Below, one piece after another: positions 3,001-4,616 of a stretch of DNA of 4,616 nt. Position 1 is the stretch's first letter. Each line of letters opens with the position of its first letter. The stretch is from a virus (Duplodnaviria > Heunggongvirae > Uroviricota > Caudoviricetes): positions 1 to 4,616 of the IMG/VR virus record IMGVR_UViG_2648501392_000005; one strand, written 5' to 3'. Position numbers: made by a program.

Positions 3001-4616
3001 ACACTGTTTGGCCCTGGCGAATTACCGGACGAATCTGAGAAAGATGCTCAGGCCTACTTTAATCGCAAATATGCACCGATTGACGAAAAGCTTATGGCGC
3101 TTCACAAGTGGTTTTGGGAACAAAGTGAAGCCGAGCGCGCCGCTGGCATTCGCATCAAAGGAGAGTGAGATGAACGGACAAATCTCAATTGTTCGACCGG
3201 GAGCATGTGACGATTGCGAGATACGAATGATTATTCGTCTGGCGAGGGGGAAAACAATAACTGCTCTCATTACTCCAGAAAATCTCGCATTAGCATTAAC
3301 CGGAAAGTCAGACCTGCCAGTAGAGCTAAAGCTGCGAAATGTTGAGATTAAGGTGAAATAGCTATGACCACTATTACCAAAGAACGCCTGCTGACAATCC
3401 AGCAGTGGCGCGAAACATACGGACCTGGTAGCAACGTTGTACTGCCAGCAGAAGAAGCGGAAGAACTGGCACGAATTGCACTGGCATCGCTTGAGGCAAA
3501 GCCGGTGGCGTGGAAGGTAACCTTCACGCAAATTGACCGTGAATATAACACGTTCACTGGTATGTATTCTGACAAAGCAGAAGTCGAACGGTGGGTGCGG
3601 CTGCATAAAGCATGTAATTTTCGGGCAGATATAACACCGCTTTATACCGCCCAGCCAGTGCCGGTAACTCCGGATGCCTGGATAAGCTGTAGTGAGCGAA
3701 TGCCAGAAATGGGAGAGCGACAATGCTATGTGTTAGCAGCTGACTTTAAAAACAACTACCCACCAAACATCCCCAACACTCAGGTCGGCGTATATGGCGA
3801 CTGGTTTAATGATGGCAATCCCACTTGGGATGACGGTGATGGCGAAGACCTGTATCTCAAAGAGGTAACCCACTGGATGCCGCTACCAGAACCGCCGCAG
3901 GAGGTTAACCGTGGCTAACCTGCAACTTGCCGTCAAAGGTGAATAACAATCCTCGCACTCGCGGAGATTTCTTTTATACGATATAGGGGAAAAGGTGTGG
4001 TTAACAATATTGCAAATCACTCTTCGTTTCCGGCTGTAACAATCGACAGCCAGATGCTGTTGAAAATGGTCAATGAAGCTCGCAAGTTATGTGGAGAGCC
4101 ATCAGTACGTAACAACAAATTCATCGAGAAAATTGAGGATGAATTGGAAGGCGAGACCTACACAAAAAGTGTAGGTCGGAAAAACGGGGCTGACATTGAT
4201 GTTATCTCCATGACTATCAAGCAGGCGCTTCGTGTTGCTGCTCGCGAATCTAAAGCAGTTCGCCGAACACTTGTAGACAAACTTGAAAGTATGCAGGAAG
4301 CGCACATTAAAAGCGGTAAATCAGCGAGTGGACTTGTTGAGTATCGTCAAGCGCGAACACTGAAAATGACGGTTGAAGCTGTTACCAATCTGTTCGATTT
4401 GATGCCAAATCTTGCGCCGGAAGCAAAGCAGACTGCTGCGGCAAGCATAATCAACCCGCTCGTTGGTTTTAATGCAATACCTCTTCCGGCAATAGAAGAG
4501 CATTACTACTCAGCAGGGGAGTGAACCGCCCCGGGTTTCCTGGAGAGTATTTTATCTGTGAACTCAGGCTGCCAGATCATCGTTTCCGATGGAAGCATAA
4601 TAAGCTTTTTCTGCTT

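Follow-up and report, generated by a model that had tools for sequence, protein, structure and literature searches.

Three accessory genes downstream of ea22 in a lambda-like Escherichia coli prophage: a probable junction of independently shuffled modules with an IS-truncated antirepressor-like gene

Which functions follow the Ea22-like gene at the downstream end of a lambda-like exo–xis region, and do the genes found there belong together? The question arose for a window of 4,616 bp that represents the whole draft contig JHRX01000095.1 (GCA_001265685.1) and runs 95 bp into a multicopy insertion sequence (IS). Because the contig ends inside this repeat, the end of the window reflects a break in the assembly. 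Three ORFs in tandem, here named ORF-A, ORF-B and ORF-C, had been read in a first-pass annotation as one cohesive cargo block with a possible host-takeover, anti-defence or exclusion function. The genes upstream are those of a lambdoid phage: bet and exo are followed on the plus strand by DUF1317/orf60a, DUF1382/orf63, an ORF of 71 aa in the position of orf61, a TraR/DksA zinc-finger gene (orf73) and the Ead/Ea22-like gene, hence five genes that succeed exo on the pL strand in the arrangement of a lambda-type exo–xis block. Pfam matches to DUF1317, DUF1382, zf-dskA_traR and Ead_Ea22 were obtained, and the gene order agrees with the published description of the region (PMC8614690). The claimed synteny with lambda through ea22 was thereby borne out, as was its end at position 3170. 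In lambda, ea8.5 and orf55 fill the slot after ea22, which is known to be variable and was rightly called a mosaic hotspot (PMC8614690); in the window, non-lambda genes occupy it.

Each of the three ORFs is a real gene with numerous homologues: 95 for ORF-A, 883 for ORF-C and, in a search that saturated at 8,000 candidates, more than 7,987 for ORF-B. Their proposed coordinates and sizes were reproduced, with plus strand frames at 3170-3361 (63 aa), 3364-3918 (184 aa) and 3997-4524 (175 aa), although the last value is not the native length of the gene: the intact protein has 240 aa, and from position 4522 onwards the sequence belongs to the IS. The Ea22 stop is separated from ORF-A by 1 nt, ORF-A from ORF-B by 2 nt and ORF-B from ORF-C by a spacer of 78 nt (Table 1). 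A consensus scan of 3170-4524, spacer included, revealed no plus strand promoter or terminator, with counts not above those of shuffled sequence; the sole plus strand terminator-like site of the scan lies within the IS end. The three ORFs are located on the early leftward (pL) strand and would be part of the pL transcript. Antisense ORFs, including a minus-strand frame at 3022-3723 (233 aa), were rejected as genes for lack of a PHROG or family match. NCBIfam provided nothing informative for the three proteins. The PADLOC defence models gave zero matches to ORF-A and ORF-B, and for intact ORF-C only a sub-threshold hit to mad1 at the level of a helix-turn-helix (E 0.007).

Table 1. Coordinates of the features in and next to the variable slot, in positions of the 4,616-bp window
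Feature	Position	Strand	Remarks
bet	35..769	+	
exo	766..1446	+	
Ead/Ea22-like gene, 256 aa	2398..3168	+	Pfam Ead_Ea22, 9e-35; last conserved exo–xis gene, upstream partner of ORF-A
ORF-A, 63 aa, phrog_1222, RefSeq WP_001014291.1	3170..3361	+	ATG 1 nt past the Ea22 stop
ORF-B, 184 aa, EaA/DUF551 family, WP_000208053.1	3364..3918	+	DUF551 at aa 105-179, nt 3676-3900
ORF-B/ORF-C spacer, 78 nt, module junction	3919..3996		similarity to the DNA of other phages and genomes is interrupted near here
ORF-C remnant, first 175 of 240 codons, putatively antirepressor-like; intact form WP_000247838.1	3997..4521	+	N-terminal domain and helical region kept, predicted C-terminal winged helix lost
IS629/IS1203 (IS3 family) end, terminal 95 bp	4522..4616	- (transposase)	94 of 95 bases equal to annotated IS1203/IS3-family copies

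The closest complete counterpart was found in E. coli O39:NM F8704-2, which shares 100% identity with the window over 3170-4521. There the third gene codes for the 240-aa protein WP_000247838.1; two AntA/AntB antirepressor genes come next, and xis and int after them. This intact prophage relative is integrated beside ybhC and carries a 356-aa integrase (region 12114-14798 of the F8704-2 locus), presumably a sign of a lambda-type attachment region. A putative nucleotide-modification gene of the Nmad5 family lies just downstream of its N gene. DUF1317/orf60a is intact in the window (1437-1625), whereas the F8704-2 prophage, nearly identical in other respects, has an internal stop in this gene (7274-7456 of the F8704-2 locus), which is annotated there as a pseudogene. 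A separate observation concerns the Ea22-like protein, residues 145-243 of which (window 2831-3126) match the PADLOC model PDLC02890 'DpdH' with an E-value of 1.6e-36. The model may simply derive from the C-terminal domain of a prophage-type Ea22; alternatively, the Ea22 variant domain could be linked to Dpd islands (7-deazaguanine DNA modification).

With a probability of roughly 0.78, we regard 3170-4524 as the place where three accessory modules, each shuffled independently of the others, meet in the variable ea22–xis slot of a lambda-like E. coli prophage, with ORF-C as an antirepressor-like gene truncated by an IS. The truncation is directly visible. Up to base 4521 the window equals the intact F8704-2 gene, at 4522 the IS begins with its terminal inverted repeat, and its initial three bases provide ORF-C with the stop codon TGA (4522-4524). 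The boundary sequence TGAACCGCCCCGGG is common to both ends of annotated IS1203, which places the element among IS629/IS1203; the reference copy comprises 1,310 bp. The IS insertion thus truncates a 240-aa protein. An identical junction with the same single-base variant of the IS was present in GCA_001284525.1 and in the Logan assembly of SRR29759356, and in none of 5,426 complete E. coli genomes. Since two other independent assemblies contain it, the junction is real and not a chimera.

Intact ORF-C aligned end to end with phrog_1726 'anti-repressor' (residues 3-239 to positions 4-264 of the 264 in the profile, E 1.9e-97), the fragment of the window with residues 3-175 to positions 4-197. Residues 171-237 of the intact protein additionally match phrog_130 'anti-repressor Ant'. 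Pfam detected no domain in the truncated or the intact form; P22_AR_N, AntA, ANT (KilAC) and P22_AR_C were absent at E<1. An intact homologue with 93% identity was modelled with AF2 (pLDDT 73); in the model, an N-terminal α/β domain (~17-83) precedes long helices (88-158) and a C-terminal helix-helix-hairpin-helix unit (175-236). By structural comparison of this model, the C-terminal domain probably corresponds to a winged helix of the MerR superfamily, a helix-turn-helix with a wing. It is highly conserved throughout the family, with many invariant columns in 175-227. A profile search in 1.8 billion representatives yielded 1,277 relatives with clear domain shuffling: the C-terminal half of ORF-C stands behind Rha (24), Bro-N (23), KilA-N (13), ORF6N (12), AntA (6) and P22_AR_N (4), and the N-terminal domain is fused to ANT/KilAC in other relatives.

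Homologues of ~240 aa are distributed across the Enterobacterales (883 matches). Among 80 homologue loci in IMG/VR, mnt, the tailspike N-terminus or a gp16-type ejection protein was encoded within 6 kb in 54, a Rha gene was present in 65 and int/xis in four. The P22-like phage JEP4 has its homologue, annotated as KilA, between Rha and mnt/tailspike. The gene of the window has a different location than immI: it is flanked by the DUF551 gene and the IS in the exo–xis region. PHROG label, domain architecture and gene context suggest that intact ORF-C is a phage antirepressor-like protein of the Rha, BRO and KilA class. Domain shuffling and the gene context of the homologues argue for an immI-type regulatory gene that has moved into the exo–xis slot. 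ORF-C would accordingly descend from a 240-aa regulator whose N-terminal domain is joined by long helices to a MerR-type winged helix and whose usual home is probably the immI (ant) region of P22-like phages. After its transfer into the ea8.5 slot, IS629/IS1203 would have cut the gene after codon 175 and removed the winged-helix domain. The gene itself has a mosaic start (window 3997-4040): DNA similarity to JEP4 and many genomes begins only at ~4038, and the first ~14 codons resemble another allele group (INNIANQSSFPA...) than the rest of the gene.

The truncated gene is most likely a pseudogene that would have lost its function. That the 175-aa product still functions, for example as a regulator without DNA-binding domain or as a selected dominant-negative form, appears unlikely. 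Nothing is missing from its N-terminal domain or helical region, and the same allele occurs in three assemblies. The profile search also returned relatives of ~130-170 aa, and because these short representatives (129-167 aa) span the N-terminal part alone, truncated ORF-C could still be partly active. The three assemblies, however, possibly stem from one clone, and the short representatives may be fragments; insertions of IS629/IS1203 are common and usually inactivating, and the lost domain is precisely the one with the invariant columns.

The preferred reading as a junction of separate modules draws on the distribution of the genes as much as on the fate of ORF-C. Of 80 viral loci with ORF-C as anchor, two contained ORF-A and four a DUF551 gene; of 80 with ORF-A as anchor, four contained ORF-C and 67 a downstream DUF551 gene, with both top-80 sets dominated by close relatives and not phylogenetically independent. 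The distance from ORF-A to the DUF551 gene varied from ~200 to 1,200 nt, and the N-terminal region of ORF-B was kept in 18 of the 80 ORF-A loci. In 46 of them the same C-terminal variant of Ea22 was encoded directly upstream, ending 0-20 nt before ORF-A. Complete E. coli genomes presented a similar distribution. Among 5,426 genomes, ORF-A DNA was detected in 716, ORF-C DNA in 94 (at least 80% covered in 54 of these) and DNA matching ORF-A plus ORF-B in 1,823. The exact allele pair of ORF-A and ORF-B was limited to six genomes, the same six that possess the contiguous trio, and these represent one prophage lineage. The recurring unit is apparently 'ea22 variant – ORF-A – DUF551 gene', and ORF-C appears to be a separate module. 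Since the three genes assort independently, the label 'block' is misleading.

These counts weigh heavily on the proposal of the first-pass annotation that the three ORFs form one cargo cassette for host takeover, anti-defence or superinfection exclusion. Occupation of a known variable accessory slot, the shared strand and the tight spacing of ORF-A and ORF-B are compatible with such a cassette, ORF-A and ORF-B have no known function, and the presence of ORF-A in virulent phages as well implies that its role need not concern lysogeny. Still, ORF-C almost never accompanies ORF-A or ORF-B (2/80 and 4/80 loci, 6/5,426 genomes), so that the co-occurrence check, which had been suggested together with the proposal, went largely against the trio. 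ORF-C is moreover an IS-disrupted gene of probable antirepressor type, the DUF551 partner is absent from ORF-A in Dhillonvirus and Av-05, and none of the proteins attains a PADLOC match above threshold. A cassette with a common function of this kind is quite improbable.

ORF-B passes the DUF551 (PF04448) threshold with 73.5 bits at a cutoff of 22, its C-terminal segment covering the full profile (1-68), and matches phrog_60, 924 and 660. The exact protein occurs on 227 contigs, and some of its many homologues are named EaA. In the family alignment, a conserved N-terminal part of ~45 aa and the conserved C-terminal DUF551 enclose a hypervariable middle of roughly 0-250 residues, the pattern of a typical mosaic accessory gene. 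DUF551 has been described as a portable domain that is also present in fusions of the Ea22 variant V2 and in YfdS of CPS-53 (PMC10834534, PMC4776307); cells without yfdS were reported to be sensitive to H2O2. In ORF-B it would serve as such a portable C-terminal domain, which some phages appear to have fused directly to Ea22.

ORF-A has a constant length and 62-100% identity across prophages of Enterobacterales. Its predicted structure is confident, and no solved fold was matched. Homologues with 66-77% identity are also encoded by the virulent coliphages Dhillonvirus and Av-05 (Vequintavirinae). The homologue of Dhillonvirus 'rolling' (3501-3692) lies in a replication module, flanked by the genes for the DNA polymerase and a VRR-NUC nuclease; that of Av-05 is at 2477-2695, and a DUF551 neighbour is missing beside both. 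Their occurrence in virulent coliphages suggests that the role of ORF-A is perhaps untied to lysogeny. Zinc binding was considered and rejected, the two cysteine residues not being conserved. Residues 20-38 (window 3227-3283) gave a weak local profile match to the first β-hairpin of ubiquitin with the motif GKTIT (E 0.03-0.3); a β-grasp assignment received no support from structure comparison.

The 2-nt spacing and the downstream DUF551 gene in 67 of 80 ORF-A loci invite the view that ORF-A and ORF-B form a functional pair of two genes, for instance a toxin-antitoxin system or an effector with its modulator. Against this, no toxin-antitoxin or defence family was matched by either protein, the ORF-A to DUF551 distance ranges from ~200 to 1,200 nt, and the N-terminal region of ORF-B is found in just 18 of 80 loci. 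DNA of ORF-A plus ORF-B was found in 1,823 genomes compared to 716 for ORF-A alone, and in the replication modules of virulent phages ORF-A stands alone. Such a pair has a poor chance of being correct. Within the preferred module junction, ORF-A and ORF-B follow the 'ea22 – small ORF – DUF551' order that is standard for Stx/EPEC lambdoid phages and, judged from their neighbours, would be early, non-essential modulators of the exo–xis type. A more specific proposal, doubtful at present, sees in ORF-A a small factor directed at the host or its defences, or a modulator of DNA metabolism, that acts independently of the lysis-lysogeny decision, with the DUF551 protein possibly its regular partner in lambdoid phages. 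None of the present results speaks for a host-directed or anti-defence role of ORF-A or the DUF551 protein.

An assembly artefact at the contig end as source of the gene–IS junction is hardly credible. The position of the junction, in a multicopy IS 95 bp before the end of a 4,616-bp draft contig, would be compatible with it, but two assemblies from different sources, one an NCBI genome and the other a Logan assembly of SRA data, share this exact junction together with the single-base IS variant.

As an assemblage of three separately shuffled accessory genes, the third cut by IS629/IS1203, the region is ordinary. Every piece is already present in public genomes, annotated as hypothetical protein, DUF551 protein or hypothetical/anti-repressor protein, and is nothing new in kind. 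The apparent three-gene 'cargo block' would be the common mosaic downstream end of an exo–xis region, of little import beyond annotation. For annotation practice the locus illustrates that draft contigs ending in an IS can give false ORF lengths, and the 175-aa ORF is better annotated as a disrupted antirepressor-like gene. The IS may exert a polar effect on downstream genes. If it blocks pL read-through to these genes, in the intact relative AntA/AntB-type genes, xis and int, prophage excision could suffer, and an impaired excision would be relevant to the fixation of the prophage in the lineage. ORF-A and DUF551 represent widespread proteins that are worth adding to systematic screens of phage accessory genes.

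Among known systems, P22 Ant, Ant of phi24B and the Rha, BRO and KilA proteins are the relatives of intact ORF-C, which matches the PHROG 'anti-repressor' family and shares halves with them. For the Stx phage phi24B, ant has been proposed to promote efficient prophage induction (PMC3064807). ORF-C differs in that it lacks the Pfam antirepressor domains and has a C-terminal domain that is predicted to be a MerR-like winged helix; binding of a repressor is putative for the whole family. The P22-type immI neighbours mnt, tailspike and gp16, which stand beside ORF-C homologues, are absent at the window locus, where the gene is truncated. The IS agrees with IS629/IS1203 in 94 of 95 bases and in the terminal repeat TGAACCGCCCCGGG. 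The reference element encodes a transposase with programmed frameshift, whereas the window covers the last 95 bp alone.

ORF-B has the C-terminal DUF551 in common with P22 EaA, YfdS of E. coli CPS-53 and Ea22_V2. In contrast to Ea22_V2, the domain belongs here to a free-standing protein of 184 aa that adjoins Ea22 without being fused to it. The most similar arrangement as a whole was found in the exo–xis regions of Stx/EPEC lambdoid phages, e.g., BP-4795, with 97-98% identical DNA over the matching segments. BP-4795 presents the same order as the window in tight spacing: ORF7 (Ea22-like, 256 aa) equals the Ea22-like gene in length and position, ORF6 (63 aa) has the length of ORF-A, and ORF5 encodes DUF551. 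The allele of the latter has 196 aa in BP-4795 and 184 aa in the window, with a different middle segment. Behind ORF5, BP-4795 continues with a DUF4222 gene, a small ORF, xis and int, whereas the window continues with the antirepressor-like gene and the IS.
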